Virus record (IMG/VR): IMGVR_UViG_3300037602_000018
Span: 39,050-103,049 of that record
DNA from: a virus
Taxonomy: Duplodnaviria; Caudoviricetes
Length of the DNA stretch: 64,000 bases
Strand: one strand, 5' to 3'
A program made the translations under genes and the position numbers. The notes under the pieces are model-generated. The model was given only the letters and a program-made list of their open reading frames with translations. It made no database searches and had not been told where the DNA came from. This document shows, piece after piece, positions 2,838 through 40,702 of the stretch (its first letter is position 1; each line of letters begins with the position of its first letter).

Positions 2838-2840
2838 ATA

Positions 2841-2868
2841 ATAAGAGGGGATTAATTTCCCCTCTTAT
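2841..2868. terminator. Bidirectional intrinsic terminator between convergent modules
   Basis: ATAAGAGGGGA-ttaatt-TCCCCTCTTAT 11-bp hairpin where plus- and minus-strand operons converge. Confidence 0.8.
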
Positions 2869-2885
2869 AAAAATTTTGACTTTTC

Positions 2886-9800: not shown

Positions 9801-12800
9801 TCGTAACTAATACCTTTCTTTAAAGCTTCTATAATATTATTACCAGCTTTTCTATCTTCTAGTTCTCTGATAATTATATCATTAAGTACAGCTATATCTA
9901 ATTTAGAATCTAATTTTAATATTTTTCTAATTTCCTGAGCTTGCTCATTAGACAACTCTGAAATGTAATTATGAATATCCTGAACCAAATCACTGCCTAA
10001 TCTTCCATTATAATCTTCATCTAATTTAATATTAGCTAAAATATTCTTTTGAATCTGAGAAGCTATAGCAGTTTGTTTAATTCCCTTAGTAGGTAAATCC
10101 TGTTGTAATCTCCAATTTCTATTATCAAGTTCAAATGAATCTAAAGTAAACTGTCCTTTAAGTTCACCATCTTTTGAAATTTCAGAAGGAGTAAATGCAC
10201 CTACTTTAACACCATCTAAAGTGATAACTTCATCTACATTATCTATATCCATTCTAACGGCTAATTGAGCTAACTCTGTATCAGCAATCATTTGAGGAAG
10301 TAATACTCCTAATGAATATTTAAGATAAGTAGGTTTACCATCAACAAGACCATAATAAACCCCTTTAATAGGTTGGGTAGATTGAGTAAGAACTTTAAAT
10401 TCTTCTTGGCTTATTAAATCTTCTTTAGATAACTTTTGGTCTTTTTTAACTTTCTCAAAACCACTTTCTATCTTTTTATAAATTACATCAAGATCGCTAT
10501 TCCATCTACCTAATCTTTCTATAATGAATTTCCATCTCTTATGACTAGCCAATGCCTGAGCGTCAGTTCTGTTTACATTCTTATATTCCTGAACTACTTC
10601 ATTATCACCAAAGGCTTTTTCAAGTTGTTCATAATATAGACTTTGAAATATAGCATTATTAATTACAGAAGCATTAAACTTGTGATCATTTTTAGTTTCA
10701 CCTAATGATAATCTAAGTCCATCTATTCTAGCTGCTTGCGCTCTTTTATTAACATCAATAAGGTCTTTAAAATAAGACATATCACCATATATAGTGTTAG
10801 TCTGTTCATAATTCCCTATAATTGTATTAATAGTATAATCAGCTAATGCAGATTCAAATGAAGAATATTTATTTAAAATTGCTTTATCTATTACACTTCT
10901 TGTAATACCTTTATTTTCATTAACTACATGTTCTACTATACCTTGTTCTTTAATAGTATTTACAGAAGTTTGAATATCTTGTTTTAACTTTTCTCTTATA
11001 TAATCTTTTAAATTATCAAGCTTTTTAGGGTCTAACTTAGAAAAAGGTTTACCTGATTTACCATATAAGCCTAGTCTATTATTAAGTTCTTCTGAAATAA
11101 CATAAGGACTTAATTCTGAATATAAATGAGATTTAAAAGCATTTCCTACTAACTGACCTGCTTCATTAGTTATGTTACCTCTTTTATCTGTATGATAATA
11201 CATTACTCTGTCTTTTTCAGAGATAGGATTTTCTTTAAGTTCCATCCATGTATTATACATTCTTTTATATTCATCCTGAAAATGCCCTAATAGAATATTA
11301 ACAGGTTCTTCTGAAAGATTAATTTTCCCATTATTGAATTCTACTTTACCTTCTACAAATGGTAAACCTTCTAAAAACGTAATAGTAGATTTATCACCCA
11401 TAGTTAAAGTAGGATGCATAGTTTTTTGACCTCTCTTACTTCCTAATAATGCATTAATCTGAAAAGCTAATAAATCAGCAGGTTTAATATTTTTAGGGTC
11501 AGCAGCTAAATCTCCTACTTCATCTAGTCTTATAGATGAGAATATTCTTGTACGTATTTCTGGAGAATCTAAAAGATATTGTACCCATTTAGAATTAGGA
11601 TGTTTAACAACTAATTCAGTTAATTGAGATATATCTCCTTCTGCTATTCTTGTAAAGAAATCTGTAATCATTGAAGGACTACCATATTCCCAATATTGTT
11701 TATTATTTACAGTAACATTAGCTTCTGTTAATGAACCATTTAAATCTGATTCAGCTAAAGCTAATTCAGTTATTAAAGTTTCATTTGCAAAAGGATTATT
11801 AAACTTATTATTTACAAATAAAGGTTTTCTCAAACTAGTAAATAAATAAGTCTTTCCAGAGATAATATTTCTTATAGTTTCTTTCTCTCCATTTGTATTT
11901 CTTATATTCCTTAAAGATTCTTCTGTAACATCAATACCTATTTTACCTAATAAAGCCTTAAATTTTACTAAAGCCTCATCAGGTTGTTTTAATACAATTT
12001 CTTTTATTTCATTGTATTCATTAACAAGATTATCTACTTTATCTGTAGATATTTCATTTTTAACTACTAAGTCTGAATATAATAAATTATTACCCCATTT
12101 AGCAATTAATTTATCAGAAGGAGATATTCTTTGTGTATCAAATACTTTAAAGTTTTCTTTTCTTTTATTTAAAGTAGCACTAACATAATTAGACTGTTCT
12201 TTATCAAAAGCTAGTTTAAACTGTCTTTGAATATGTTTAGGGGCCTTATCAAGAGTATTTAACAACTGGTTCATCCAAGGTTTGTTACTCTCATAAGACT
12301 TCATTACATTAATCATTTTAGGTAAGACATCTACTATCTCACCATTAACTAATGTACTACTAAAACCAGCTAATTTAGGTTCAAGAAAACCCCATATTTC
12401 ATCAAAAGGTACAAAAGAATATCCTATAGTGGAAGGTTTTTCAGAAGGTATAAAAGACAACATTAATTTAATATTAAATGTAGCTTTGTCTTTACCGCTA
12501 CTTTCAAAAGAAGATTTAATATTTAATGGGTCAGTTCTATCTTCTTCATCTACAGCTTCTAAATCATCATTAATTGTTATACCTCTTTCTTTGTAAAACT
12601 TAAATACATTCTGATAGAAATCATTTTTAGCATTAGCTACTATTACAAGCATAGAAGCTTTTTCTCTATCATTAGATTCTTTAGCTTTTTGAAATTCCTG
12701 TTTAAGAAAATTATCTAAGATAGTATAGATATTCTTATCAGCATTAAACTTTTCAAAGTCTTCTCTGGTTAATAAATTTTCTCCAGAAATTTCATTATAT

Positions 12801-13162
12801 AAAGCATAAGCTAAGTTAGCAGTTACATCATTTACTTGCTTTGCAGATAAATTAGCAAACTTACCATCTATATAAAATCTATCTCCCTTTAGATTTTTAA
12901 AGAAATGATAACCATTTTCTTCAAATAATTCAGGTTCACCATTAACATCAGTAATGCCTTTTTCTTTAAACTCAAGATTATTTTCTTTATGAGCTTTTAC
13001 AAAGTCACCAAAAAATCTTTTAAATCTTTCTGTATGAATTACATTATAGATTCTTTTAACAGTTTCTTCAGGAACTTTACTTCTTTTACTTAATGCTTCA
13101 TCTATTTTAGGAGCTAGTAAAGAAGGATTATTATTAGTATGGGTATCGTAATTACATCTCAT
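6890..13162 (-). CDS. Virion-associated single-chain DNA-dependent RNA polymerase (crAss-like, phi14:2 gp66-type)
   Basis: 2090 aa; GYRIPNQG...TGSDFDIDKMY catalytic motif; TDAQ, PIKGVY, LKYS and AYVDIAKD motifs. Confidence 0.92.
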   Translation of the reverse strand: MRCNYDTHTNNNPSLLAPKIDEALSKRSKVPEETVKRIYNVIHTERFKRFFGDFVKAHKENNLEFKEKGITDVNGEPELFEENGYHFFKNLKGDRFYIDGKFANLSAKQVNDVTANLAYALYNEISGENLLTREDFEKFNADKNIYTILDNFLKQEFQKAKESNDREKASMLVIVANAKNDFYQNVFKFYKERGITINDDLEAVDEEDRTDPLNIKSSFESSGKDKATFNIKLMLSFIPSEKPSTIGYSFVPFDEIWGFLEPKLAGFSSTLVNGEIVDVLPKMINVMKSYESNKPWMNQLLNTLDKAPKHIQRQFKLAFDKEQSNYVSATLNKRKENFKVFDTQRISPSDKLIAKWGNNLLYSDLVVKNEISTDKVDNLVNEYNEIKEIVLKQPDEALVKFKALLGKIGIDVTEESLRNIRNTNGEKETIRNIISGKTYLFTSLRKPLFVNNKFNNPFANETLITELALAESDLNGSLTEANVTVNNKQYWEYGSPSMITDFFTRIAEGDISQLTELVVKHPNSKWVQYLLDSPEIRTRIFSSIRLDEVGDLAADPKNIKPADLLAFQINALLGSKRGQKTMHPTLTMGDKSTITFLEGLPFVEGKVEFNNGKINLSEEPVNILLGHFQDEYKRMYNTWMELKENPISEKDRVMYYHTDKRGNITNEAGQLVGNAFKSHLYSELSPYVISEELNNRLGLYGKSGKPFSKLDPKKLDNLKDYIREKLKQDIQTSVNTIKEQGIVEHVVNENKGITRSVIDKAILNKYSSFESALADYTINTIIGNYEQTNTIYGDMSYFKDLIDVNKRAQAARIDGLRLSLGETKNDHKFNASVINNAIFQSLYYEQLEKAFGDNEVVQEYKNVNRTDAQALASHKRWKFIIERLGRWNSDLDVIYKKIESGFEKVKKDQKLSKEDLISQEEFKVLTQSTQPIKGVYYGLVDGKPTYLKYSLGVLLPQMIADTELAQLAVRMDIDNVDEVITLDGVKVGAFTPSEISKDGELKGQFTLDSFELDNRNWRLQQDLPTKGIKQTAIASQIQKNILANIKLDEDYNGRLGSDLVQDIHNYISELSNEQAQEIRKILKLDSKLDIAVLNDIIIRELEDRKAGNNIIEALKKGISYEALPQHLNRIQNLIFSWVNKRTTKITTNGGGLIQMSSFGLDKLTTTEKEGIYWLTDEIERLADKGLAPPLEGKPGEVLISGGWLSKYIPNWREIPYNELMEVVDSRIFDIVGYRIPNQGMSSNDNLRVVGILPDLMGDTIVPYSEITTKTGSDFDIDKMYVMMPEFNTVPDLSWYNTALNIIDTYNLSADDMLNSIYEVDENWYINEGFIPDDKLFTVEDFNKKYSQSEYSKIVFKYMTEFHSDEMIFKNIQYAEQGSKGIKNKLIQAYIDILNDPKSYIDKMTPLDANFLKDSIERLDALRPQSEQTQLNFFDGVNQLNIKFAYMGGKAGVGQTANHVVDHPLSQLAEIMLATDYQVGHELNGLIDLSQEYTTDGKQKISQVLSAFLNAYVDIAKDNYITKGNHNTLTANVAFLLARAGVPIDQINGFLMQPILVDYVKETNKQESKVYEKQYVNGKLIKPIDKVLAKYGANDKLFKELEPISNFSTESFEKALKFEFSNEATITLEESKEYQLQILKTFLKLQDASKALRDSVVASKVDTNGAGNDLATLIASKKLFGKVVTEGLVENFLAKFDNTFMGAYYRNSIDLIDEITKELFQNIYRQSEFMDIIALQTDNSLTNHKLLRDIIKDTYSIFYSQIPVLRETDIKSLFTDLPQQIYKLRGTNEFIDNLEFNFGEYSFIGVNQLRADSEYFNDMMYQGWKELMQTHPDLADKLVKHAFYSTGFQNAIMSLVPYIPHEWMYESGFIRQIEESNNINLLDNALDVYYKQKIADNKIIPKLADRIKKRPVVNTEGKNFNIKDVFSIDSENYRIDSLDKAKIYYPYLKTGSKNKFNLYKWVGNDNQENGVYVRVNPLGIQQPGGLKINEYTPESIFNTEQLDFVLPKMNSPKLPVAKRIKDKTLDEWLNKDETSENRLTQSEGTPEELNELKNLVIEDISELKNSSELLKELESINTFSALNEFIKKYCN

Positions 13163-13165
13163 TTA

Positions 13166-16100
13166 TTAACACCTTTCATTATTTTGATTATCATCCTTAG
13201 CCTTATTAGCTTCTTTATTCTTCCTAGTATCTAAATCCATATTAGATTTACCACTTAATCCTTGATTAAATGAGGCCTCTAACTCATCCATAGATTCTTC
13301 TGTTTTAAAATCTTCGTTCATGTCGTAATTACTTACTTGTTCTTTAAATAAATCTGCTACAGATTCTTTATTATCTAAACCTTCATTATCTGAAGTAATA
13401 CCAGCTTTTTTAAGGACTTCAGTTCTATCTCCATTATTTTCTTTCCATTTCATCTCAGCACCTGTAGTAACTGAGATTATTTGTCCCTTATTATTTACTA
13501 CAAATTTTCTTCCTTTATGTTCTACAACTTTAGCTCTACCTTGTTGTACTGCAAAGTTAGCAAATATTTTTCTTCTATCTACAGTATCTTTACTAAAAAC
13601 TTCTTTACCTTTACTATTAAATATTTTACTTCCTTTAATAGTATATGTTTGCTTAGATTTTCCTTTAGGGGTATAATTAATAGTGTTGAAAGGTTCATTA
13701 TATAAATCATTAACAGATACTGCATTATCTAATCCTTCTTCTTTACTTACTTTTAATTCAGGTTGTTTAGTTTCTGTAATTGGTTTTAAAAACATACTAC
13801 CGCTATAAATACCTTGTCCTTGTTTAAAAGGTAAATCAACATCTACATCTGTAGTAAGTATATTTGAATTAACTATATGTTCCCTATATGCTTTATTTTT
13901 AAATTTAGAAGCTTTTATTTGATACCTTTTTTTAGTTTTTAAATATTCTACTACAGATTCAAAATCTGATCCAGTTGCTAAAGTATTGTTATTTCCTCCG
14001 TAATATAGTTTTCCTTTACTTAAATATAACTCAGATTGTAAACCAGCAGTTTTATTTCCAAAATAAACAAAATAATCTATTACTTCATTATAAGTAGGAG
14101 AAGTATTGATTAATTCTTTATAATCAGGAAGTATTGTCTGTAATTGAGATAACAGATTGTCAGGCATTAAAGTATTCCAATTTACTTTATTCTGAAGTAT
14201 ACTTTGAAATACAGTTGCTACAAATCTTGCATCTTCATCACTTAAAGTTTTAACATTAAGTTTAATAGGAATTTTAACTCCTTTATTATTAGTTGCTTTA
14301 TAAAATATTAAACCTGAACCTGCAACTACTTCGTTACCTGATTTATAAGTTACTTCAGGTAAATCATTAAAGTCTTTATCATAATTTCTATTTTTAACAG
14401 ACCAATCAAATCTAACATATCTTCCTTCAACATTAGTCATAACAAAGTCTGATTCTTTTATAGAACCAAATACTTGTTCAATGTTATTATCTTGACGTAC
14501 ATTATTGATTTCTAAAGGATAATATCCTTCTACTTCACTTATTACTTCGTTACCTTGTTTAAGTTGGTTAAGAATATTTTTCCTAAACTCTGGATTTAAT
14601 TCATTTTTACCAGATCTTATTGTATATAAATAAGTAAATACTTCCTGACCATTAATAGTAATAGGTTCTCCATCCTTTAAAAAAGTAACTTTTAAAGCTA
14701 CATTATTTACAAAGTCTGTAAGTTCAGTAGGAGTAATAGTATCATTTAAAAACTTTTCAATTAACTGATTATATCTTTCTGTAACTTCTTCTCCACTAGC
14801 AAAATGTCTATCTCCAAAAGTTATTTTTACTTTAGTACCTATTTTATCTACAGGACTATAATACCATTCTTTAAACGCAGGTTTATCTTCTAAATAACTA
14901 GTAGCTATTTGTACACCTGTTTGATTAGTTTGTACAGACTTAGCTTTCTCTTTAATCTCATTAATTTCATTACCTGACTTAGTTTCAATATTATCTAGTT
15001 CAGAAGTAACATTTTCTACAGGCTCTACTTTACTGGTTTCTTCTTTATTTAAAGTTTCAGCTAAAGCTTCTTTAACTTCTATATTTTCTTCACTAACTTG
15101 TTCTTCACCAGTTCTTCTAGATAATTCTTCTTTATCATCTTCTGTTTGAGCAGCTTTATCAGCTTGTTCTTTAGCTTGATTTTCTAAGCTTTCTCTTTTA
15201 TTACTAACAACTTCTTTTAGTTGAGATAAATTACCAGATTGTTCAAGTTCATCTTCAAGAGCATCTAAAGAATCTAAAGATTTAATACTATTAATATTAT
15301 TAGTTAATTTAGTATTTTCAGCTTCTCTCTGATATTCAGGTGAAGTTAATTTACTAAATTCTTTCTCAAGCTTTTTAATGTTAAGTTCTGCTTGTCTTTT
15401 AGAAGCTAAAGCATTAGTTAATTCAGGATGATTAGGTAAAGTACTTATAATACTTTTATCATTGTCTATAATATCTTTAGAAGTACCTTCAGGATATTCA
15501 ATTTTATCTTTTAGCTTGGTTAATGTTTTATCAATTTTTTCTAAAGTTTCTTTATAACTATCATCTCCAGCAACATCAGCTTGCATTTGTGTTAACACTT
15601 TAGCTGATTCTAAAGCTACTCTTTGAGAATCTCTTTCAAATATTTCAAGACCTACAGCACTTAAATCTTCTATTTGAGGATATTCAGCTTTAGCTTTACT
15701 TAACTTAGAATCAGATTCTTGTCTAATTCTAACCATATTTTCTAAGTTATGTCTATTAACTGCAAGTAATCCCGCAGTAGAACCATACTTATTAGCATAC
15801 TTTAAATATTGATTTCTAATCTTAACAGCATCTTCTTTTAACTTCGGAGCTATTTCTTTAGCCCAATCTACAGACATATCTTCTATACCATATTTTTCTT
15901 TATATTCCTGTAAATCTTGTTCTTTAAGGTTTTCAAGATTATCAAAAAATTCTATATGGTTATCAAACGTATCTGTTTGTACTGCCTCTAAAGTCATAGC
16001 TAAATTCCATGCTTTTCTAGCTTCTAATGAAGCAGATAGATTTCCTTCAGCATCAGCCTTTTTAATATTTTCATGTAAAACAGCAAAATGAGTACCTCTC

Positions 16101-28173: not shown

Positions 28174-29172
28174 TTAATCTACTAACTCTGCTAGTAACAT
28201 ATATTTAACACCATTGATAGAAACTTCTATCTTAGTGTCATGAGAACCAGTTGCATCTGGAGAAGGTGTACCTAATTCCCAAGCACCTGCTAATTCATTC
28301 AAATTAGTATCTGATGTTTTAATCGTTTTTGCAAAATCTATATCATTAACAGAATTTTCTGCTAAGTTAGTAATAAATTTGGAAACAGAATTATCTGTTT
28401 CACTTAAATCTATATTTGATTTTGAAACTGATAAAGTAATATAATCTCCATTATCTGTAAAAGAAATAGAATCATCTGTTCTTAAAACTCCATCATCTGA
28501 CGTTGTTCCTAAATAATCAGGAACAGAATCTTCATCTACAGCAACTTTCCCTAACTTGTGTAAATTAATGTCAACCCATTTGACTCCGACTGCTTCATTA
28601 CTGTCAGCTTGTAAAAAAGTATAATCTTCTCCAACAGGAAGTCTAGTATCGTTAGAAGAAGTTCTAACGTGTAAATCTCCTTTTGTAGTTAATATACTTG
28701 AATTTGTTGCATTAATAGTATCTTCATCAATTTCAATACCTGAACCAAATTGTACAAACCTATAAATTTCTTGATCTGCATCCCATAGTAATAAACTATC
28801 TTCTTCTACATTAGGAGTACTTAAACCAGTACCACCTTTACTTACAGGTAATATTCCATCTAATTCTGATAAAGACATTTGAGAAGGTTCTACATCTATA
28901 GATATATCATTAGCATTTTCTGTAACAGATACTTTATCTGAAGCAGCTTTAACTTTTCTAAAATTAAATTGTTTTAAATCAGTAATGTTTTTAAATATAG
29001 AAGCACCAGTACCTAAGTTAGAAGCAGTAATTAATAATTCTAAAAAATTAATTTTAAAATTATCATCATTAGTTTCATCAACACCAACTAAATTAATAGT
29101 AGTGTTAATTAAATCACTCTTAATATCGTTAAAAGATTTAGAAGTAAATTCACTAAACTTCTCCTTGGCCAT
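28174..29172 (-). CDS. Putative tail fibre/fibre-associated protein
   Basis: ASNLGTGASIFK...FRK, GILPVSKGGTG, LTTKGDL......RLPVG fibre-type motifs. Confidence 0.65.
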   Translation of the reverse strand: MAKEKFSEFTSKSFNDIKSDLINTTINLVGVDETNDDNFKINFLELLITASNLGTGASIFKNITDLKQFNFRKVKAASDKVSVTENANDISIDVEPSQMSLSELDGILPVSKGGTGLSTPNVEEDSLLLWDADQEIYRFVQFGSGIEIDEDTINATNSSILTTKGDLHVRTSSNDTRLPVGEDYTFLQADSNEAVGVKWVDINLHKLGKVAVDEDSVPDYLGTTSDDGVLRTDDSISFTDNGDYITLSVSKSNIDLSETDNSVSKFITNLAENSVNDIDFAKTIKTSDTNLNELAGAWELGTPSPDATGSHDTKIEVSINGVKYMLLAELVD

Positions 29173-29410
29173 TAGTTTCGTTTTTAGGTTTAGTAATATC
29201 TTTTACAAATCTATTTAATCCTAAAGTTAATATATCTACAAGTTTATCTTGCGCTCTAATTAGTAATATACCTACTACAGGTAATAAACATAATCCTAAT
29301 AGCGGGATTTCATATAAACTAGGAATAAAAAGTAATACTCCAAATAATACTATAAATAGTATACCTATGGTTGTTGTTATAGGATTTTGCTTAAAGTTGC
29401 TCATAACCAT
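29153..29410 (-). CDS. Putative holin (2 TM)
   Basis: 85 aa, two hydrophobic helices, within the lysis cluster. Confidence 0.6.
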   Translation of the reverse strand: MVMSNFKQNPITTTIGILFIVLFGVLLFIPSLYEIPLLGLCLLPVVGILLIRAQDKLVDILTLGLNRFVKDITKPKNETNGQGEV

Positions 29411-29937
29411 TTTAATTTAAATTGAAATTTTAATACGTACCAAATAAAGAATAATAAAACTACTGTTATAATAAATGTAGGTAAAGACCACCACTTAACT
29501 ACAACTTTAGATTGATTTTTATAATGTTCTAATTCTTTTACTAACTCTTTATTTCTTAAATCATAAGCTCTGATTTCCTGAGTCTTTTCAGATAGTTTAC
29601 TTTGATATTCTTTAACAGACTCTTCACATTCATTATTAAATTGAATAGTTTTACCATCAGAAACTATACTGGAATTACCTGCTTGTACTTTAAATTTTCT
29701 AAGTTTTTTAGAAATAGTATCACAAGGATTTTCTATTTGTATATTTTGATTTTGTGGTAGAGTTTTAACTATAAAAACACTATCTACTTTTCTTTCTATA
29801 TTAGATAATGAATCTATCTTAGTTCTTAATTCAATATTTTCTTCTTTGTAATCAGAAGTTTCAACTAGTTTTTTCTTACTATTACAACTAACAAATATAG
29901 TTAATAAAAGTATTATTACCAAATTATTTTTTATCAT
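29401..29937 (-). CDS. Putative unimolecular spanin
   Basis: Lipobox (LLTIFVS-C) plus C-terminal TM helix (LPTFIITVVLLFFIWYVL); adjacent to the endolysin. Confidence 0.7.
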   Translation of the reverse strand: MIKNNLVIILLLTIFVSCNSKKKLVETSDYKEENIELRTKIDSLSNIERKVDSVFIVKTLPQNQNIQIENPCDTISKKLRKFKVQAGNSSIVSDGKTIQFNNECEESVKEYQSKLSEKTQEIRAYDLRNKELVKELEHYKNQSKVVVKWWSLPTFIITVVLLFFIWYVLKFQFKLKWL

Positions 29938-30581
29938 TTTAATATTTCATTTAATTTTTCTTTAACAGTACCTTCAATTTCTGTTTTTATATAAGAAAGT
30001 TCTACGTCAGTAAATTTTTCATCTTGGTGTGTAGCTATACTACTGAACACTAAAACATCATTATCTGCATCTATAGCTTTTCTAAATAAATGTCTTATTT
30101 TAGAATGTTTAACTCCTTCTTGAATATAAAAATTTTTTAAAAGAGAATTTTCCATTGTGTCAGTTTCTAATAATATAGTTTTACTAGGACTTAATTCTGC
30201 TTTTTTTAACATTATCTTATAAGAAGTATCTACATTGATATTTCTATATCTTTGTCCTGCTTCAATAGTTTCATCTTTATTTTTAAACCTTTCAAAGATA
30301 ACAGTAACTCTATTAAAAGATTCTTTACCATTTACAGCTATTAATACTAAAAATCTATCGGCTTTAGTATTAATAAAAATACGAGAAACTGATTTATGTA
30401 TTTCACGAATACTATCTAAACTTATAAGTTTATCAAATATATTTAATTTAATTTCAATTTCCTTATTTTCTTTTTCAAGATTATTATTTTTTACTTTTAA
30501 TTTTTTAATTTCTCTCATATGTGCTAAATAACCTAATACTAAAGTTACTAAAGCAGGGATAGCAATTGTCAAAAATTCCAT
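29934..30581 (-). CDS. Putative holin/antiholin: N-terminal TM, coiled coil, possible GAF-like domain
   Basis: Single N-terminal TM followed by a soluble domain (ADRFLVLIAVNG); sits between endolysin and spanin. Confidence 0.5.
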   Translation of the reverse strand: MEFLTIAIPALVTLVLGYLAHMREIKKLKVKNNNLEKENKEIEIKLNIFDKLISLDSIREIHKSVSRIFINTKADRFLVLIAVNGKESFNRVTVIFERFKNKDETIEAGQRYRNINVDTSYKIMLKKAELSPSKTILLETDTMENSLLKNFYIQEGVKHSKIRHLFRKAIDADNDVLVFSSIATHQDEKFTDVELSYIKTEIEGTVKEKLNEILK

Positions 30582-31085
30582 TTATAAGTTGTCGTTTAGT
30601 AGTTTTAAAACTCTATTTCTCCATCCATTAATATATTTTATTAATGCAGGTTTAGCTAATATTATATCAATATATTTATTTAATCTAAAAAGTAAAAATC
30701 TTTCTTCTGAAATAAGTTTAGATGCTTTTATTGTATTTGGCCCTACTATTCCATCAGTTAAAGTACCTATAGCTTGTTGTAGAATTCTAATCCCTCCTCT
30801 TAAACCATGGTTAATAACTGAATCAAAAACACTTACTTGTAAATGTTTAGGTAATTTATCAATTCCAGCTTCTACCCAAAAATCTAAATAATAAATATCT
30901 TGAGCTTGTTTCAAAGTTAAATTTTTTATATCTAAATAAGGGTAACTATGAGCAGCAATTCCATATTTAGTGCCTTTTAATTCACCTTTACCAATTATAC
31001 CAGTAGTCCAGTTTCCCCTATCATCTGGGTCATTTGTATAACCACCTTCGTGACCTATTATTTCTTTAAAAGCTTTATTAAACAT
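30582..31085 (-). CDS. Endolysin, glycoside hydrolase family 108
   Basis: HEGGYTNDPDDRG, GTKYGI, FDSVINHG, DGIVGPNT, GWRNRV. Confidence 0.92.
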   Translation of the reverse strand: MFNKAFKEIIGHEGGYTNDPDDRGNWTTGIIGKGELKGTKYGIAAHSYPYLDIKNLTLKQAQDIYYLDFWVEAGIDKLPKHLQVSVFDSVINHGLRGGIRILQQAIGTLTDGIVGPNTIKASKLISEERFLLFRLNKYIDIILAKPALIKYINGWRNRVLKLLNDNL

Positions 31086-31126: not shown

Positions 31127-33919
31127 TTATTCTAAAATTACTGGTCTTGAATCCCAATCAGAAGTCCATTGCACTTGCTTAGTACCCCCTTCTGAATTGG
31201 TATATGTTTGTGTCCATGTTTCACCCACTACCGTTGTATTGGTTAGCGTGTAATCTTTTAGTTCGTTATAAAACTCCGTAACTAATTCACCCGAAGGTTT
31301 GAGTAATAAATTACCCAATGCAACTGAGGCATCTACCCTCCAAGCTATACCTGATGATGAATAAGTAGCAGCATTTACCCATTGGCTTAAATAAGTGTCT
31401 GAGAAATTGTTATCTCTAATATGGTAAAGATATATAGTTTTAGCATACTGCGCTCCTGTCAACAAATAGCGTAGATTATAGTTAGCTTGTCTAGCTAGTA
31501 ATAATGAATCAAACATTGGCCATACTATAGAATCATGGATATACTCAGCACTATCACCACTACCATCAATGTGATAAGAGAATATAGAGTCTGTTTCTTC
31601 GCTTATATAAACTCGGTTCAAATTCCAAGGTGCTAAGGCTGCGTCTGCCCCTGTTTCAGTATTAACAACAGGTATACCTAAACTGGCTCCTAAAGCCGCC
31701 ATTTCTTCTATTGATTCCAACCATTCAGTACCTTCGGGGGGTATAGAGTAAGCGTTAGGGTCATGTTGAAACCCTGACCGATTATTGCAATAAGAGTTGA
31801 AGCATATCATGTCAGCAGGGAATAAACTATCTGACCGATTGTGGTAAAACCAGTCGCGCATCATCTTGACATATCCAGGATTGTTAAAAGCCAAAGCGGG
31901 GCCAGCTACTATCATTTCAGGAGCCACATCTTTGATACCGTTACCATATTGTCCTTCATGCCCATCATATACCATACTTAGTGCTGCCGCTGCCGCGTGT
32001 GGTGTAAGATTGTGGTATGTTGTCCACCATGTTTTATCCCATTCATTCCAAGGTGAGAAGATTACAACAGTATCTAACCTGTTAGGCTGTTCAACAATCC
32101 ATTCGGCCATTCTAACATAAATTGCACGCATAGTATCCCATGTAGCTGGGTTGGTCTGTAACTCTTTATTTTGTCGGGTTGTAAGAGTGGTGTCCCAATA
32201 CATATAAGGTTCTTCTCCTATGGGGGTATGTGTAGGGTAAGTAGATGTAAATTGATTTAGATTCTTTATAGGCGAAATCATAAGCTTGCCCCCTCTTGCC
32301 TGAAACTTTTGTATTTGGTCTATCTCTAAAGCTCCAACCGCTCCAAATTTATTAAGGCTATTATCGGTATTAATAGTCTTATTCATTTCTACGTAGGTAC
32401 GACTGCCCGCAAAAGGGTTAATGTCAAATATGTTTCTGAATACTGAATCTACAGATTCTCTATGGTCATAATCATGAGTATTGATACTCCAAGCTTGTTT
32501 TACGGGTACGTTTGGTAGTTCAGGATGAAACTCTTCTACTGTATCTATACGCACACCAAAAGCTTGAATTTCATTAATACCTGTTATAATAGCACTCCGA
32601 TTAAGTATAATGTATCGAATAGTATCATCTATGGTCACCGTTTTAGTTCCTAGATAGGTGTCTAAATTAACTCTTGTAATACTATCTAACTCAAACATAT
32701 TTTTCTTACCTATCCATATATCTACAGTAGGGCTTCCTGTACCATCTTTAATTTTTAAAGCCTCTACATAGCACTTTCCATGAAGGTCTATAATTAAAGT
32801 ATGCCCTGTAAGACCTGTGCCGTCAATTAATTCATAACTCATGGATATAAAACCACCACTAAACACATCGTTGGTATTGGTTATCCCATCAAATAAAAAT
32901 TTGGATTGTACAGGTACAGTGGGAGCATTGGACAGTACCATTTTATGAGAAAGCCTAAGTTGCCCCTCAGTTAATACAGGGGGTGGTGGGTCTATTGGGT
33001 CAGGAGAATCGTTACCTTCTTTAGGCTCTAAATTCTGTATATCTTCTACAGCAGTCTTCCATATTTCATAAAACTTTTCTTGCTTAGAGTCTGATATATA
33101 ACTACCATAAAAAGCTCCCAAGAAATCATGACTACATGGCCCACCAGCAGAACCATTTAAATTTGCTGCTAAAATGTAATGTTCTATACGACTTAAACCT
33201 GTTATTACAGCAGTACTTGAGTGAATTTCCTCACCATTTAAAAATATCTTTCTTGTAGTACCTTTTCTTGTAAATACTATAAAATTGTTAGAACTAGCTG
33301 GAAAAGAAGAGAATACAGCACTGGTAGCATCACTGAATCTAGCAGTTCCACTGGCTCTAAATACCAAATCAATATCAGGATTAGGTGTACTTTCCCTTGA
33401 ACCCATAGCCCAATCACCATCTATAGTAGAACCTTGTATTTGAATATAGGCACCAAATGAAAATGAATCTGCTTTAAAATGACTGGCGTTACTATCAGGT
33501 ATAAAATGAGTACGTAAATAAGCTCCTGAAGCATTAGGTCTAAAACCTAATTGAGGACTATATTCTACATCACCTACTATAGTACTATGTCCAATATTAC
33601 TAGCATAATTTCTTAAACCAAAATCTTCACTAGTGTTATTTGTAAATTTATACAACCTGTCAAATTCTAAATTCAACGAATCTAATCTTCTTACAAAATC
33701 ACTATTAATTAAATTTTCATCGTTTTCAGGAGTCTCTAATCCATCTGAAATAGCAGAGTCTAATACAGCTATATATTTAACATGATATAAATCACTTAAT
33801 CGAACTGTGTCTAATATTCGATTTGATTTCTCAGCATTAGCTAAATTTATAGGAATTATTGTTTGAGCTTGTATATTAAATACAATAAATAATAAGAAAA
33901 CTATATATCTTTTCATCAA
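31127..33919 (-). CDS. Secreted multidomain protein: LamG/ConA-like + beta-sandwich + clan GH-A glycoside hydrolase
   Basis: Signal peptide ...FNIQA/Q; RKIFLNGE; Pro linker (PDPIDPPPP); WNEWD acid/base and NTETGAD nucleophile motifs, AGPALA. Confidence 0.7.
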   Translation of the reverse strand: MMKRYIVFLLFIVFNIQAQTIIPINLANAEKSNRILDTVRLSDLYHVKYIAVLDSAISDGLETPENDENLINSDFVRRLDSLNLEFDRLYKFTNNTSEDFGLRNYASNIGHSTIVGDVEYSPQLGFRPNASGAYLRTHFIPDSNASHFKADSFSFGAYIQIQGSTIDGDWAMGSRESTPNPDIDLVFRASGTARFSDATSAVFSSFPASSNNFIVFTRKGTTRKIFLNGEEIHSSTAVITGLSRIEHYILAANLNGSAGGPCSHDFLGAFYGSYISDSKQEKFYEIWKTAVEDIQNLEPKEGNDSPDPIDPPPPVLTEGQLRLSHKMVLSNAPTVPVQSKFLFDGITNTNDVFSGGFISMSYELIDGTGLTGHTLIIDLHGKCYVEALKIKDGTGSPTVDIWIGKKNMFELDSITRVNLDTYLGTKTVTIDDTIRYIILNRSAIITGINEIQAFGVRIDTVEEFHPELPNVPVKQAWSINTHDYDHRESVDSVFRNIFDINPFAGSRTYVEMNKTINTDNSLNKFGAVGALEIDQIQKFQARGGKLMISPIKNLNQFTSTYPTHTPIGEEPYMYWDTTLTTRQNKELQTNPATWDTMRAIYVRMAEWIVEQPNRLDTVVIFSPWNEWDKTWWTTYHNLTPHAAAAALSMVYDGHEGQYGNGIKDVAPEMIVAGPALAFNNPGYVKMMRDWFYHNRSDSLFPADMICFNSYCNNRSGFQHDPNAYSIPPEGTEWLESIEEMAALGASLGIPVVNTETGADAALAPWNLNRVYISEETDSIFSYHIDGSGDSAEYIHDSIVWPMFDSLLLARQANYNLRYLLTGAQYAKTIYLYHIRDNNFSDTYLSQWVNAATYSSSGIAWRVDASVALGNLLLKPSGELVTEFYNELKDYTLTNTTVVGETWTQTYTNSEGGTKQVQWTSDWDSRPVILE

Positions 33920-33927
33920 TATTAGAT

Positions 33928-34806
33928 TTACGGAAGCATCGCTTCTATATCCGTTCTATTTGTTGTTTGATTAGAAGGGTAGACAATTACAAGTTTTATA
34001 GTACCTATCCAAAAAGAAGTACCTGAATGTCCACTACCCATTGTAACTCTACCTAATTGACCTGAACCTACATTCTTTGAGCCATAATCATTATTGTTTA
34101 TCCATAAGTTACTAGTAGTTGTATTAAATACAGCAAACCATACAGATTGTATTTGGAAAGGACTAACTGTCATGTAATCATTAATAGAACCTGCAAATAA
34201 ACGAGCATTAGCATCGCCATTTATACCCATTGCTTGTCTATGAGTAGCACTACCGTCTGTAATATAATGAGCATTCCCATCAGCAGCACTATCTCTGGTA
34301 GCTATAGCTATTCTTGTAGTAGGTTGTGCAATAGGCCCAAAAGTAGATGTTTGTAAATAATCATTACCATCAAATTTTAATACAGGTAAACTATCACTTC
34401 CTTTTACGAGTATACCACTTTCTACAATTTTTGGTTGATTAGCGTCTATGGTTTGAGTAGCATGTCTACCATTACCGCTCCAATCGTATAACCATGAAGC
34501 AAAACCATCGCCCCCACCAACAAATGTTTTAATAGATGAAGTATCTACCATTCCGTCTATTATGCCAAAGCTTTGACTAGAGTTGTCTAGGTTTCTTCTA
34601 ACAACAATTATACTGTCGTTATAGTTCTTATCTAACTGTATTAATGAAAATGCAGCAGAAGCTCCAGGATAATCATTCAATAACAAATTTGGAATATTAT
34701 CTGAACTAAATGAAGAAAATTGTACAGTATTAGCATTTGGACTTCTAAGTTGCCCAAATGCTTGTGTTATACATGATATTAATATTATTAATAAAATATT
34801 TTTCAT
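33928..34806 (-). CDS. Secreted LamG/ConA-like beta-sandwich protein
   Basis: Signal peptide ...TQAFG/Q; A.AAFSL..L, VRR..DN, W.YDWSGNGRHATQ...NQP, KFDGND. Confidence 0.7.
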   Translation of the reverse strand: MKNILLIILISCITQAFGQLRSPNANTVQFSSFSSDNIPNLLLNDYPGASAAFSLIQLDKNYNDSIIVVRRNLDNSSQSFGIIDGMVDTSSIKTFVGGGDGFASWLYDWSGNGRHATQTIDANQPKIVESGILVKGSDSLPVLKFDGNDYLQTSTFGPIAQPTTRIAIATRDSAADGNAHYITDGSATHRQAMGINGDANARLFAGSINDYMTVSPFQIQSVWFAVFNTTTSNLWINNNDYGSKNVGSGQLGRVTMGSGHSGTSFWIGTIKLVIVYPSNQTTNRTDIEAMLP

Positions 34807-36881
34807 TAATCAGCAGGTGTTAAAGCAAAATCTTCAAATCCATTATATATTTTACGTAAACCAGCTCCACTATATCTAGTACTAATGCTTGCACTGCCAT
34901 TAACAATACCGTTAATTCTAGTACTATTAATACATTGTATTTTAATAGGATTAGTTCCTGATATAAATAAATCTGCTACAGTAGTATAAGCAGGTACAGT
35001 TAATCCAGTATCTAAATAAATTGTTATTGTATCTGTATTAGCAGTACTATAAGTCCAGTTAGTTCTATTAAACCATTCATCAGTAATTGTATCATTTGCT
35101 GAGATTTCGTATTCACCATATGAAAAAGCAGTATTAATACTATCTATTCTAAGATTAGTAATACTATCATGATAACTAACAACGCTATCTATTTTAGAAT
35201 CAACTTCAGATTTAGTATAATAGTTATTTAAAGTACTATTATTTACTTTGTTATCTAAACTATCTTGTAAATTTACAACAGTACTAATAGCTTGTGTACC
35301 AGTATGATTACTCCTATTTAAATAATAAGCACCTGTTTGTCCATTTAAAGTACTCGCATTACTACTAGAACCACCTTCTATGCTCACAGCATTAGCCACA
35401 TAAAAAGTATCATTTACATACATTACAGAGGCAGTTGCTAATACAGTATCTGTATTTACTGAAACACCTCCAACTTTAATGTTAGAAGTTCCTTTTTGAA
35501 ATAAAAATAAACCTTCATCGCCATTATTCCAAAAGTTAGTTACGCTACCATTAGGTATAGATAAACTATTAAATGTGACTACAATAGTATCATTTGATAA
35601 ATTTTGAATATTACAAGTAGTATCAGATGTTGAAAAAGTAAAATCAGCCGTAACTTTTTTGTAACATGATTTAAAAGATGAGACAGAAGACCCTCCTCCG
35701 ACATTAATACTGTCTGCAAGGGTATCAAGTTTAGCTTGTACCCATTTAGCAGGAGGTATGGTATATGGAGTTACAGTAAAATTATTATTATAAGTACCAG
35801 GGTGATATTTAAACCCTTCATAAGAATTAAATGATGCGTGTCCTGTTTTATTTGAAAGAAGGTCTGAACTCCTAGTATTAACTGAAAAATACAAACTATC
35901 ACCATATGTTTGAAATTTTGAAAGATATGTACTTAAAGTACTAAGACCTGTTCTTTGTGAGCTATGTATGGCGCTATTTGGAGAATTTACTCTAAACGAC
36001 CTTAATCCAGTTAAGGCGATACTGCTATCTGTTAATGAAAAATCATAAGCCCTTTCAATATTAAAATACCTCTGGTGCTTTTCAAATGCTTCAGTTAATG
36101 TTAAACTGTCAATTTCATAATCAGATTTAAAATTATCCAAACTATCTAAAAACCTTGGTACTGTTACTAATTTAGTAGTATCTACTTCAACTTCATAATC
36201 AAAACCTGATTGACTTACATTAATACCAAAACCTGCTGATACAGTATCTTTTTCATTAGTAGGGTCTGAATCACCATCATCTATAGTAAACGTATCTCCT
36301 GTACCATTTGTAATAGTTCCAGTAATATTATTACCTACTTTATTAAAAGATATGTTTTGTAATTCATTTGTTACAGAAGAATCACCATCGTAAGGATTTG
36401 TAATAAATCCTACATCATTTGTAAATCCACTTAATACTGTAGGTACAACTGGAAATCTTGCTTCTAGAGCATTTAAAGAATCTTCTAACTCTGTTCTACG
36501 TATATACAGATTAGAGGAAAATCCTCCTAAACTATCTGCATTACCTACAGCACCTGAAGATATAGTAGAAATTGTATCTCCTGATATAACTATATTATTA
36601 CCTGCTATTATTCTTTTATTAACTCTTAATTCAATCCAACTACCTGAGTTAAATCTGTAAAAACTACTATCTAAAGGCTGATATACAACAAGCGTACTAT
36701 CTTTAAATTTATCAGGTACATCTGCTGTATCACTATAGTATTTAAAACCTCCTCCTACATTATAACTACGTATAGCAGAAAAATCACCAGTTGGTTCAAT
36801 AGCACCACTAGTACCTATTTTTACTTGAGCTTTTACATTAAAAACAAATAAACAAATTAAAAATATTAATATTTTATTCAT
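34806..36881 (-). CDS. Secreted tail-fibre-like protein
   Basis: Signal peptide ...FNVKA/Q; ADSLGG, VPTVLSGFTNDVGFIT, DGDSSVTNELQ, RSNHTGTQAISTV..LQ..L..K, YYTKSEVD fibre motifs. Confidence 0.7.
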   Translation of the reverse strand: MNKILIFLICLFVFNVKAQVKIGTSGAIEPTGDFSAIRSYNVGGGFKYYSDTADVPDKFKDSTLVVYQPLDSSFYRFNSGSWIELRVNKRIIAGNNIVISGDTISTISSGAVGNADSLGGFSSNLYIRRTELEDSLNALEARFPVVPTVLSGFTNDVGFITNPYDGDSSVTNELQNISFNKVGNNITGTITNGTGDTFTIDDGDSDPTNEKDTVSAGFGINVSQSGFDYEVEVDTTKLVTVPRFLDSLDNFKSDYEIDSLTLTEAFEKHQRYFNIERAYDFSLTDSSIALTGLRSFRVNSPNSAIHSSQRTGLSTLSTYLSKFQTYGDSLYFSVNTRSSDLLSNKTGHASFNSYEGFKYHPGTYNNNFTVTPYTIPPAKWVQAKLDTLADSINVGGGSSVSSFKSCYKKVTADFTFSTSDTTCNIQNLSNDTIVVTFNSLSIPNGSVTNFWNNGDEGLFLFQKGTSNIKVGGVSVNTDTVLATASVMYVNDTFYVANAVSIEGGSSSNASTLNGQTGAYYLNRSNHTGTQAISTVVNLQDSLDNKVNNSTLNNYYTKSEVDSKIDSVVSYHDSITNLRIDSINTAFSYGEYEISANDTITDEWFNRTNWTYSTANTDTITIYLDTGLTVPAYTTVADLFISGTNPIKIQCINSTRINGIVNGSASISTRYSGAGLRKIYNGFEDFALTPAD

Positions 36882-38127
36882 GATATGTTAAATTACTATT
36901 ACCTACTAACATCCAACCAATATACCTAGTTCCATCTGAATTACTCCAATCTGCAAATTTAGAATAAGCATTTCTTATATCTACTTTTTCTAAACACCAT
37001 TTGAAATAAGGTTTATTTATTTCATTTATTTCAAATGCCCAAGGTAAACCATCTCTAGTTTTATAAGTGCCATTGTAATCAGCACTTGTATAAAATCTAC
37101 TAGAATCTACTAAATTAGTCCCAGAATAATAAGGCATGTGCGTTTCACGGCCTCTTTCGTTGGTACGATAAATATAAAACTCTCCGTATAAATTACCTGT
37201 AACATTACTTTTAAAAGTAACTACCTTATTATATTGATGATAATTAGTTGTATTTAAACCGTTTATATTAGTATTATAGTATCTAGGAGATAAATCTCTT
37301 CGTACATCATTTGCTATATTTACACTATTATCAGCATCTGTAACAGATTGAATTATATCACTACCTCCATTTAAAAATCTAAGAGACAAACCACTTGAAG
37401 CACCTGCACCTAAAGCTAATATCTTACAATTTACTAAAGCATCTACGTATTCAAAATTTTTATTTAGTCGATATTCAATTATATTATCAGATACTAAATC
37501 ATTAAAATCTAAATCACCTCTACCAGGCCAAGTATCTTCAAAACACATTAAATTCTTATATACTCGTTTATAAGCTCTTAATGAATCAACAGGATAATCA
37601 TCTAATCTATCAGGCACACCATCACCATCAGTATCTAATTCAATTACTCTTCCTACGCATATATTATCTACATAACCTAAAGAATTCGTATATACGTAAA
37701 GTTGAATAAACTGAGAATTAAATGTATTTGTATATACATTAGTAATAGATACTCCATTATTTTTAGAAGGTGTTGTATATCCTAAAAAAGTACTATCACT
37801 AGAATAATGCATTATAAATAAAGAACCTCCTTCTGTATAATCATAAGCTATTCTATAAATTGCATCTGGATTTACAGGAAATGAATACTTAACTTTTCCT
37901 AAAGTTAATTTACCTTGGCTAATATTAGTATTATTTTCTTTATACCATATATTATTAGGTAATAATTTAGTATATACTTCGTTATTAGTATCTATAATAG
38001 GATTATTAAAATCTTGAGTTGTTATAGAACAACTAGTACTATTCTTCTTAATTTTATCTTTTGTGAATATATCTTTTTCACAAGCTACCGATAAGATAGC
38101 TAACATTAAAATATTTAAATATTTCAT
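36874..38127 (-). CDS. Lipoprotein with LruC/DUF4842-like domain
   Basis: Lipobox LSVA-C; DTDGDGVPDRLDDYP calcium-binding repeat; FEDTWP.RGD.DFNDLV; GLPWA; E..DI..AY.KF.DW. Confidence 0.8.
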   Translation of the reverse strand: MKYLNILMLAILSVACEKDIFTKDKIKKNSTSCSITTQDFNNPIIDTNNEVYTKLLPNNIWYKENNTNISQGKLTLGKVKYSFPVNPDAIYRIAYDYTEGGSLFIMHYSSDSTFLGYTTPSKNNGVSITNVYTNTFNSQFIQLYVYTNSLGYVDNICVGRVIELDTDGDGVPDRLDDYPVDSLRAYKRVYKNLMCFEDTWPGRGDLDFNDLVSDNIIEYRLNKNFEYVDALVNCKILALGAGASSGLSLRFLNGGSDIIQSVTDADNSVNIANDVRRDLSPRYYNTNINGLNTTNYHQYNKVVTFKSNVTGNLYGEFYIYRTNERGRETHMPYYSGTNLVDSSRFYTSADYNGTYKTRDGLPWAFEINEINKPYFKWCLEKVDIRNAYSKFADWSNSDGTRYIGWMLVGNSNLTYHE

Positions 38128-39083
38128 TGAATTTCTATTTGAGCGGACGTGTTAAATTTATTATTAGATACATATAAATAATAGTTAGTAGCTACACCTA
38201 ATGTATTTGTATGACTTACAGTTGTTCTGGTAAAAGCGGATATACTTGGAAAACCATTAATATATATTTCATCTATTTCTCCAAAGCTAACAGGAATTGC
38301 ATAGTAAAAATACTGTGTTCCTGTAGGGTTATTTGTTGCAAAAGATTTAATATAATTAGTAGCTAGTTCACCAGAACCATTATTTATTTCAGTTGGAGTT
38401 AAATTAGTAGAACCTGTTACTCCATATACATTATTATTATCAAAACCCCAATACCTTTTCCATCTCCAATTAACAGTATAATTACTAGATGTTAATAAAT
38501 TAGTAAGTGTATTTGTTGCTTCAGCTCTCCATGAATGTGAAGTAGCAGTATTTTTAGTAATTGAACCTATAGCTATAGATGCAGGGGATACATTTGAAAT
38601 ATTGCTAGTTAAATAAGAACCACTAGTAACATCGTATATATCTAAAGTATTAGTTGATACATTAGACGGATTAGATATAGACCAAGAGAATGTTTTAGAA
38701 CCTGTTAATATAGTACCTACTTCGACTGTTGAAGTTTGGTTCATAGTAAAAGATGTAAAACTAGGCGTAGCATAAGGAGTTAATAATTTTTCTATAATAT
38801 CATCATAACTCCCTGATATGTTATCACCTGCTTGATAACCTCCTAAATTTATTGTAGCAGGACTGTTACCTGAGTAAATACCTGAACCTCCGTTACCCGA
38901 AGGAATTGCCATAGTGTCTACGTAACCATCAGGTCTTACTACTAGCATTAAAGTATCAGAACCTTTTAATTTAGATATTTTAAGTCCGTGTACAAAATCA
39001 GGTATATATTGAAAATTTCTCACAAGTTGTCCTGAAAGATTAAAGCTTATTAAAGCAAATATTATAAATATTAATTTTTTCAT
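38124..39083 (-). CDS. Secreted Thr/Ser-rich phage structural-type protein
   Basis: Signal peptide ...FNLSG/Q; LGG..AG...IEKLL.PY..P and YFYYAIP.SFG...NGF motifs. Confidence 0.65.
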   Translation of the reverse strand: MKKLIFIIFALISFNLSGQLVRNFQYIPDFVHGLKISKLKGSDTLMLVVRPDGYVDTMAIPSGNGGSGIYSGNSPATINLGGYQAGDNISGSYDDIIEKLLTPYATPSFTSFTMNQTSTVEVGTILTGSKTFSWSISNPSNVSTNTLDIYDVTSGSYLTSNISNVSPASIAIGSITKNTATSHSWRAEATNTLTNLLTSSNYTVNWRWKRYWGFDNNNVYGVTGSTNLTPTEINNGSGELATNYIKSFATNNPTGTQYFYYAIPVSFGEIDEIYINGFPSISAFTRTTVSHTNTLGVATNYYLYVSNNKFNTSAQIEIQ

Positions 39084-39469
39084 TATTTAAACATTACAAT
39101 TCGTAAATAGTTTGTACCTAACATTTGATATGGAAACGTAATAGTACCTTGTGATAAATCTACAACAGCTTCTACTGAAGTATATCCTTCTTGACCATTT
39201 AAATAAACAAATACTTTTGAATCAGGATAACCTGCATAATCAGCAGCATCAGTAGTTAATTCATAAACATCAGTATCTGTAATTTCACCTGTTTCTACTA
39301 TAGCTCCTAAAGAACTACTCACTAAATCTATAATACCTGAAAAAGGTATTTTTATATTTTCATTAGAAAATTCATTATGTCCTACCAAATAAAAGAAAGA
39401 ATATTGTGGAGAAGCTATAATTTGAGCTACTGTTTGTAAAGTAAATTCTGAAAATTTTTTCTGTGCCAT
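39083..39469 (-). CDS. Putative fibre adaptor protein
   Basis: MAQKKFSEF N-terminus shared with 28174-29172; VFVYLNGQ...GTITF domain. Confidence 0.55.
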   Translation of the reverse strand: MAQKKFSEFTLQTVAQIIASPQYSFFYLVGHNEFSNENIKIPFSGIIDLVSSSLGAIVETGEITDTDVYELTTDAADYAGYPDSKVFVYLNGQEGYTSVEAVVDLSQGTITFPYQMLGTNYLRIVMFK

Positions 39470-40667: not shown

Positions 40668-40702
40668 ATGGGATTAGCAGGTTTTTAGCCCACTAATCCC
40701 AT
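40668..40702 (-). terminator. Hairpin terminator after the auxiliary capsid gene
   Basis: ATGGGATTAG/CTAATCCCAT 10-bp stem. Confidence 0.6.

Follow-up and report, generated by a model that had tools for sequence, protein, structure and literature searches.

The general O-glycosylation system of the Bacteroidota operates in the periplasm and modifies non-cytoplasmic proteins at the sequon D(S/T)(A/I/L/V/M/T) (reviewed in PMC12871550). Occupancy is nearly complete in non-cytoplasmic proteins that bear the motif, engineered motifs are modified too, the system is active across species boundaries, and the motif is enriched in non-cytoplasmic proteins across the phylum (PMC12871550). Of the 20 sites predicted in TfsB, the Tannerella forsythia protein found to be most heavily glycosylated, 19 were detected (PMC8550257). 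Here we analyzed a 64,000-nt stretch of viral DNA (the window), bases 39050–103049 of the complete 103,049-bp virus record IMGVR_UViG_3300037602_000018, in which two late phage genes encode proteins of 691 and 929 amino acids (aa) that resemble such substrates. As in TfsB and other Bacteroidota substrates, both proteins have a Sec leader, judged here by rule, a predicted non-cytoplasmic location and many sequons in their soluble regions (21 and 15 sites, respectively). Unlike those substrates, they are encoded in the late virion and lysis operon of a lytic phage, and the 691-aa protein with its 21 sites lacks the C-terminal domain of the type IX secretion system (T9SS).

Prophages of Porphyromonas gingivalis encode proteins whose leaders expose glutamine (the Q-rule) and which have been read as modifiers of the host surface (PMC10367356). 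These leaders are of the same Bacteroidota type as those found in the window, although the P. gingivalis proteins are cargo genes of temperate phages and neither glycosylation nor a fibre nature is mentioned for them (PMC10367356). Among crAss-like phages, the fibre gp22 of PhicrAss001 docks in the tail hub by residues 1–26, and further fibre proteins bind gp22 (PMC10172136). By synteny, the 691-aa gene lies at the same locus as the crassvirus fibres, namely gp22 and its partners and gp91–97 of Cellulophaga phage phi14:2, and models of the protein support a trimeric fibre-type shaft like theirs. However, gp22 docks by a free N-terminus and the phi14:2 fibres are leaderless, whereas the N-terminus of the 691-aa protein appears to be a cleavable export signal, so that it has the locus of a gp22-type fibre and not the free, hub-docking N-terminus. 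Our literature search found no paper on phage proteins as substrates of Bacteroidota O-glycosylation, or on exported tail fibres. Mycobacteriophage virions are reportedly glycosylated, with structural proteins coated in sugar, as Freeman et al. are said to have described in 2023; there the glycans are said to be added in the cytoplasm by phage-encoded glycosyltransferases, whereas the route proposed here is the periplasmic system of the host.

We counted strict sequons, D(S/T)(A/I/L/V/M/T), in each protein and took the expectation from composition shuffles (2000–5000 per protein). The 691-aa protein (34806–36881, minus strand) contains 49 Asp residues, of which 29 are followed by Ser or Thr and 21 lie in strict sequons, compared with 4.1 ± 1.9 sequons in the shuffles (z 8.9). 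The second gene, read as a 930-aa open reading frame (ORF; 31127–33919, minus strand), holds 15 compared with 3.7 ± 1.9 (z 6.1); this reading starts at TTG 33919, and the gene probably begins one codon further in, with ATG 33916, giving the 929-aa protein. No shuffle of either protein reached the observed count, and both carry 4–5 times as many sequons as the shuffles predict. An earlier reading of this DNA (the original prediction) had proposed, from hand counts, that the two proteins are fibres glycosylated by the host, the glycan serving perhaps as a shield, in adhesion or for stability. Its counts were exact (49, 29 and 21 in the 691-aa protein, 15 in the 930-aa protein), and the clear excess over shuffled sequences bears out the enrichment that it had drawn from them.

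The excess belongs to the motif rather than to composition. In both proteins Asp followed by Ser or Thr and any other third residue stays at expectation (8 versus 7.2 in the 691-aa protein, 7 versus 6.3 in the other), as does the reversed motif (3 versus 4.1), while motifs in which Glu, Asn, Gly or Lys replaces Asp are at or below expectation. Together with the shuffles, these motif controls exclude chance or composition as the cause. Local clustering of low-complexity sequence is excluded as well, by shuffles confined to blocks of 10, 20 and 40 residues, which still gave z values of 7.7–8.4 for the 691-aa protein and 5.6–6.1 for the 930-aa protein. The sequon Ser and Thr codons are varied (AGT, ACT, ACA, TCT, TCA, TCG, ACC and AGC), which places the cause at the protein level and excludes a nucleotide motif. 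Eukaryote-type N-x-S/T sequons showed no significant enrichment (20 versus 14.4).

Enrichment is present in each third of the 691-aa protein separately. In the 930-aa protein it is limited to residues 311–929 (12 observed versus 2.4 expected), and residues 19–310 show no significant enrichment (3 versus 1.3, p 0.14). Of the two fibre motifs in which sequons had been pointed out, LQDSLDNK does hold one (DSL at 540), while in EVDSKIDSV DSV (565) is a strict sequon and the rest is not. As had been proposed, we also compared cytoplasmic virion proteins, and these controls were flat: the major capsid protein has 2 sequons versus 1.2 expected; a 1327-aa homologue of the phi14:2 structural protein gp082, probably the protein that had been called the muzzle, has 4 versus 4.3; and a leaderless 332-aa fibre-like protein, an internal control that is itself rich in Ser, Thr and Asp, has 4 versus 2.9. 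Counting broad matches, the 691-aa protein has 27 sequons, and its 3.0 strict sequons per 100 aa put it at the top of the bacterial range that we sampled and not above it. Exported proteins in a 190-kb sample of a Bacteroidia genome reach 2.7–2.8 per 100 aa (z 8.5), which excludes the notion of a glycosylation heavier than that of any bacterial protein.

Both genes belong to a cassette of five consecutive late genes with leaders, encoding proteins of 319, 417, 691, 292 and 929 aa (38124–39083 down to 31127–33916, minus strand), most of which overlap their neighbours by 1–8 bases. The leaders of the 691-, 929-, 292- and 319-aa proteins consist of a basic N-region and a 10–12-residue hydrophobic core followed by small residues at −3 and −1 and Gln at +1, with predicted cleavage at LSG↓Q (319 aa), NVKA↓Q (691 aa), AFG↓Q (292 aa) and NIQA↓Q (929 aa); the 417-aa protein has a lipobox instead. 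Gln at +1 is the Q-rule of the Bacteroidetes (PMC5837995, PMC10653852), and all five leaders of signal-peptidase-I type in the genome expose it. Seven proteins in the whole genome have a signal peptide or lipobox; their sequons total 47 versus 12.5 expected (Poisson p 7e-14), compared with 82 versus 74.9 in the remaining 119 ORFs. Sequon excess in this genome tracks export signals, not fibre character. Secretion through the T9SS was rejected, as no cassette protein has a C-terminal sorting domain (PF18962 or TIGR04183). Beyond the window, a 151-aa protein of the early region (genome 5043–5498, plus strand) also has a Q-rule leader, ending NTYS↓Q, followed immediately by a DSL sequon; the leader marks this early protein as exported, with a role as yet unassigned.

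The virus record has direct terminal repeats and 28% G+C, and its terminase, portal and major capsid protein match crAss-type families. Its nearest cultured phage, with a capsid protein 45% identical to its own, is phi14:2 (Crassvirales, Steigviridae; a relative of phi18:2). A Bacteroidota host is indicated by this kinship with the Crassvirales, by the Q-rule leaders and by the homologues described below. Among public sequencing runs, identical DNA is present in six pond-metagenome runs, five of them possibly the source of the window DNA, and no RNA run containing it was listed. A search for further crAss-like relatives anchored on a 194-aa neighbour returned one irrelevant locus only.

Outside the Crassvirales, the same combination of leader and sequons recurs in a second phage, here called G001, a 46-kb genome of 40% G+C that encodes a tape-measure protein and is unrelated to the window phage. 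Immediately ahead of its endolysin gene stand homologues of three cassette genes, their order unchanged. All three have Q-rule leaders, whose features are kept although the leader sequences differ, and their sequons number 14 versus 5.2, 3 versus 1.5 and 11 versus 2.1, while the counts of its capsid, portal and tail proteins are flat.

The hydrolase family to which the 929-aa protein (P0002) belongs permits a comparison column by column. Sequon columns are common to P0002, its G001 copy and the 1289-aa P0008, a T9SS-tailed homologue from the Bacteroidia that is itself rich in sequons (19 versus 4.7); another homologue, P0030, likewise carries the T9SS C-terminal sorting domain. At 33–45% identity, the sequon Asp is conserved at 11 of 12 positions compared with 15 of 29 for other Asp residues, and P0002 has further sequons of its own at columns that are empty in its relatives. 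In contrast, the chromosomal homologues from Owenweeksia have leaders and only 1–2 sequons, with Ser or Thr at 0 of the 12 sequon columns, which indicates that the motif is not needed for the fold; the exported neighbours on their contigs show no sequon excess either. The motif follows lineage, the pattern to be expected if a host system imposes the selection. An excess that is motif-specific, confined to leader-bearing proteins and placed at shared columns independently supports real export. With its columns shared by a second phage and absent from the Owenweeksia homologues, it upholds the earlier inference of real export and selection for glycosylation.

A side observation concerns these relatives. 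The first 30 residues of the truncated first ORF of the G001 record (1–1332) are nearly identical to a stretch of P0008, whose gene lies at 8058–11927 of the Bacteroidia metagenome-assembled-genome contig JAUICR010000050 (L011). The G001 record may continue into that contig or be related to it.

The 691-aa protein (P0001) has almost no relatives. It had no match in Pfam, PHROGs, NCBIfam or PDB sequence searches and none by tblastn among 50,697 phage records, and a search of 5.8 billion proteins returned only a 12% overlap with a Prolixibacteraceae protein. In the ESM Atlas it gave weak leads, to viral Mtd_N and T4 gp9/10-type clusters, and the Atlas model of the whole chain has a predicted local distance difference test (pLDDT) of 0.49. 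Homology does, however, link residues 399–677 to the C-terminal end of a leader-bearing 1330-aa protein of G001, other parts of which match tail-fibre and minor-tail proteins in 499 phage records and which is the only G001 protein with a tail-fibre-type match. Within this region, residues 399–497 (window 35400–35690, minus strand) are 70% identical to a copy on a related contig (L004), and most of their positions, including the pair Cys406/Cys423, are invariant across the 691-aa protein, that contig and the 40%-G+C phage G001. Such conservation is far above that of the rest of the protein (34% overall), and the module looks like a recently exchanged, possibly disulfide-bonded domain.

Modelled in three copies, residues 395–691 scored 0.79 compared with 0.00 for the best control, with pLDDT of 64–66; among proteins of solved structure, 20 of 30 pairs and 1 of 23 single chains attained the mark set for this score. 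Contacts agreed to at least 50% between runs and lie in register along residues 503–586, and the models support an in-register homotrimeric shaft at about these residues.

The 929-aa protein is of a different kind. Its N-terminal region gives a weak ConA/LamG-type match, and residues 312–930 are modelled by AlphaFold2 (pLDDT 89.7) as a beta-sandwich domain, possibly F5/8-C-like since some distant relatives carry weak F5/8-C matches, and a TIM barrel with a C-terminal beta-sandwich; the hydrolase domain spans residues 465–929 or thereabouts. The top Foldseek matches of this model are PslG, the Psl exopolysaccharide hydrolase (E 8e-15), and GH39 enzymes, and among viral models the best structural matches are clan-A hydrolases. 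The model shows the (beta/alpha)8 barrel of clan GH-A with Asn-Glu after strand 4 and Glu at strand 7, and these residues (Asn625-Glu626 and Glu755) are invariant both in a set of 6 and in a set of 40 sequences. PslG of Pseudomonas aeruginosa and the GH39 enzymes (PDB 9g17, 5bx9, 5jvk and 2bs9) have the same barrel and C-terminal beta-sandwich with the same Asn-Glu pair and Glu, and PslG is likewise an exported enzyme, one that cuts the cell's own exopolysaccharide. The phage protein differs in its low identity to them (12–15%), its extra lectin-type domains, its phage origin and its sequons. No Pfam family covers the catalytic part, which has no Pfam GH39 match and no PDB sequence match. By its modelled fold, then, the 929-aa protein is a PslG/GH39-like hydrolase, with no family assigned by sequence. 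The label of fibres given to both proteins by the original prediction suits the 691-aa protein, which is fibre-like, and does not suit this one, a predicted hydrolase with carbohydrate-binding-type domains.

The position of the cassette is that of host-recognition proteins. Synteny with phi14:2 is kept on both sides (terminase to gp99, and gp86 to gp79) and is broken between them. In phi14:2 the gap holds gp91–97, five of which are recorded as virion proteins by tandem mass spectrometry (MS/MS) and none of which has a leader or a sequon excess; in the window phage it holds the exported cassette, the lysis genes and the 332-aa fibre. By this synteny the cassette fills the tail-fibre locus.

For presence in the particle, the closest precedent is Cellulophaga phage phi18:3 (NC_021794, L035; Pachyviridae). 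Its gp085–087 (7892–13584), directly upstream of the lysis genes, have Q-rule leaders on which the record is silent, and they are annotated as virion structural proteins by MS/MS. Their first 60–115 residues, leader included, match the PHROG profiles 'tail fiber' and 'pectate lyase' from profile position 1. They thus share leaders, fibre- or depolymerase-type character and position with the window proteins, and differ in being poor in sequons and in that their presence in the particle is recorded by MS/MS, the window phage being uncultured. Among the matches listed by tblastn with three window proteins there was no Cellulophaga phage. As a precedent, phi18:3 lends the best support to virion attachment. 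Its depletion in sequons is the opposite of what we see in the window phage.

On these grounds we consider it quite probable that the 691- and 929-aa proteins are exported and O-glycosylated by the host. The fuller account, in which a crAss-like phage carries at its fibre locus a five-gene cassette of late proteins that are exported by Sec, cleaved before Gln and glycosylated by the host, seems to us likely, if a little less secure. Both late proteins of this freshwater Bacteroidota phage would be translocated by the host Sec machinery, their leaders would be cut before glutamine by signal peptidase I, and the general O-glycosylation system of the host would modify the periplasmic proteins at up to 21 and 15 sites, respectively. 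Glycosylation by the phage itself was rejected: no GT1 or GT2 gene was found in the genome, so any glycan would come from the host. The 691-aa protein would serve as a homotrimeric fibre-type binding protein and the 929-aa protein as a polysaccharide hydrolase of PslG/GH39 fold. We propose that selection maintains the sequon excess because the proteins work outside the cell as glycoproteins.

Where they would work is a separate matter. Tailspikes of P22 and fibres of T4 attach to particles spontaneously in vitro. The periplasmic proteins of the window phage could join particles only once holin lesions or lysis mix periplasm and cytoplasm, when leaderless adaptors, for example the 128- and 332-aa proteins described below, could capture them. 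We regard it as an even question whether the exported proteins join the particle, and as distinctly less probable that they act free or bound to the envelope. As a general rule for tailed phages of the Bacteroidota, that fibres and depolymerases are Sec-exported, capped with pyroglutamate, coated with host O-glycan and attached to finished particles upon holin lesions or lysis, the idea is tentative, its chances being slightly below even.

The strongest competing account accepts export and glycosylation and places the proteins outside the virion altogether, in or on the envelope or free at lysis, where they could cut capsule or exopolysaccharide, mask or destroy receptors and so keep progeny from being lost to debris, or aid lysis. 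Phage T5, which encodes the receptor-blocking lipoprotein Llp beside its receptor-binding gene, lends it some weight. It would also explain why the cassette stands directly upstream of the endolysin in both the window phage and G001, why the enzyme is most like an exopolysaccharide hydrolase, why one member is a bacterial-type LruC lipoprotein and why the phage keeps a leaderless fibre, and it accords with the reading of the P. gingivalis proteins as host-surface modifiers (PMC10367356). Four of the five cassette proteins, however, have fibre-type or phage-typical domains, the cassette sits exactly at the position of the phi14:2 virion fibres, the sole tail-fibre-type match in G001 falls on its leader-bearing 1330-aa protein, and in phi18:3 the proteins with leaders are on record as virion components. 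On balance we think this account unlikely, though it deserves to be taken seriously.

A second alternative is that the sequons are baggage inherited from sequon-rich bacterial exported proteins and persist neutrally, which we consider improbable. P0008 with its T9SS tail is equally rich in sequons and has columns in common with P0002, and the G+C content across the cassette (0.33 for window 32001–36000, versus 0.26–0.29 in adjoining blocks and 0.28 in the rest of the window) is slightly raised, which fits acquisition by transfer. Neutral persistence, however, does not sit well with the preferential retention of sequon Asp over other Asp in the hydrolase family, or with the private sequons of P0002 where its relatives have none. 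Moreover, the most enriched protein, the 691-aa protein, is enriched along its whole length and is almost without bacterial relatives, and small periplasm-facing lysis proteins of four phages are enriched too. The weakest alternative, that there is no export during infection and that the excess in ordinary cytoplasmic fibres is structural (helix caps and coiled-coil heptads), finds some footing in the modelled shaft (553–586), where sequons at 565, 572 and 580 are spaced at roughly seven-residue intervals and their hydrophobic third residue lies at or beside trimer contacts, but we judge it very improbable, as the excess is equally strong outside the shaft and in a TIM-barrel enzyme, the leaderless 332-aa and phi14:2 fibres show none, homologues of the same fold lack it, Glu cannot substitute for Asp and the reversed motif is flat, and leader features are conserved in G001 despite sequence divergence.

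Several points weigh against export, host glycosylation and attachment to the virion as we propose them. The leaders were assigned by visual inspection and a simple hydrophobicity rule instead of a trained predictor, and the glycosylation machinery is assumed from phylum-wide data for a host placed no more closely than its phylum. Three of the five cassette proteins (292, 417 and 319 aa) have 2–3 sequons each and no enrichment. In phi18:3, gp085–087 have 1 sequon each versus 2.9–3.7 expected, together 3 versus about 9.8, so export and dense sequons are not always paired. The LruC lipoprotein in the cassette and the position beside the lysis genes fit an envelope role equally well, and with a leaderless 332-aa fibre present the phage would not be fibreless if the exported proteins never reached the particle. 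Finally, we know of no route by which a periplasmic protein joins a tailed-phage particle, and the prevailing view is that every component of a tailed phage folds and is assembled in the cytoplasm.

If the proteins are exported as we propose, the sequon excess is an evolutionary footprint of periplasmic exposure that is independent of signal-peptide prediction, and it makes the export of fibre-type proteins a question that can be answered from sequence. Were they to become part of the particle, a new step in assembly would be implied, and the virions would wear a coat of host-type glycan that would bear on receptor binding, on protease resistance and on recognition by other bacteria or, in gut relatives, by animal immunity. 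Should they not, the phage would make host-glycosylated secreted enzymes and binders tied to lysis, which are likewise undescribed. Either way, the general O-glycosylation system of the host would shape phage protein sequences, and the idea is directly testable in the cultured phage phi18:3.

The remaining cassette members are mixed in their affinities. The 292-aa protein (P0003; 33928–34806, minus strand; 3 sequons) has a domain common to minor tail and virion structural proteins of other phages. The 417-aa lipoprotein (36874–38127, minus strand; lipobox SVA↓C; 2 sequons) has an LruC/DUF4842 domain and homologues of bacterial type. For the 319-aa protein (38124–39083, minus strand; 2 sequons), the nearest Atlas clusters are all viral and possibly beta-propeller-like.

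Two leaderless proteins flank this region. The 128-aa protein (39083–39469, minus strand) lies directly upstream, its stop overlapping the start of the first cassette gene, and the 332-aa fibre-like protein (28174–29172, minus strand) lies beyond the lysis genes. Their first 55 residues are alike (36% identity), both beginning MA.(K/E)KFSEFT, and in the window phage only these two have free, mutually similar N-termini, which may constitute a common tail-hub docking module. The 128-aa protein is for us a candidate hub-docking adaptor. Neither protein contains Cys.

The lysis cassette begins directly downstream of the exported genes with the endolysin (GH108 and PG_binding_3; 30582–31085, minus strand), followed by a 215-aa protein with an N-terminal membrane segment (phrog_29276; 29934–30581, minus strand) and a 178-aa lipoprotein (FVS↓C; 29401–29937, minus strand) that is spanin-like by position. 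Upstream, a terminator-like hairpin with a 14-bp stem (40668–40702, minus strand) stands between a 426-aa gene and a run of small genes. No terminator-like hairpin of similar strength occurs downstream, through the small genes, the exported cassette and the lysis genes (candidates at 35700 and 31629 are weaker), which suggests that the cassette and lysis genes form their own transcription unit. A sigma-70 promoter scan performed no better than shuffles, as expected for the phylum.

Small periplasm-facing lysis proteins, lipoproteins or membrane-anchored proteins that are spanin-like by position, are enriched in sequons in four Bacteroidota phages: the 178-aa lipoprotein of the window has 3 versus 0.3 expected, its counterpart in G001 (9261–9719) has 3 versus 0.4, gp087 of phi14:2 (L002) has 4 versus 0.6 and gp094 of phi18:3 has 3 versus 0.5. 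Phage lysis proteins may thus be glycosylated in the Bacteroidota as well.

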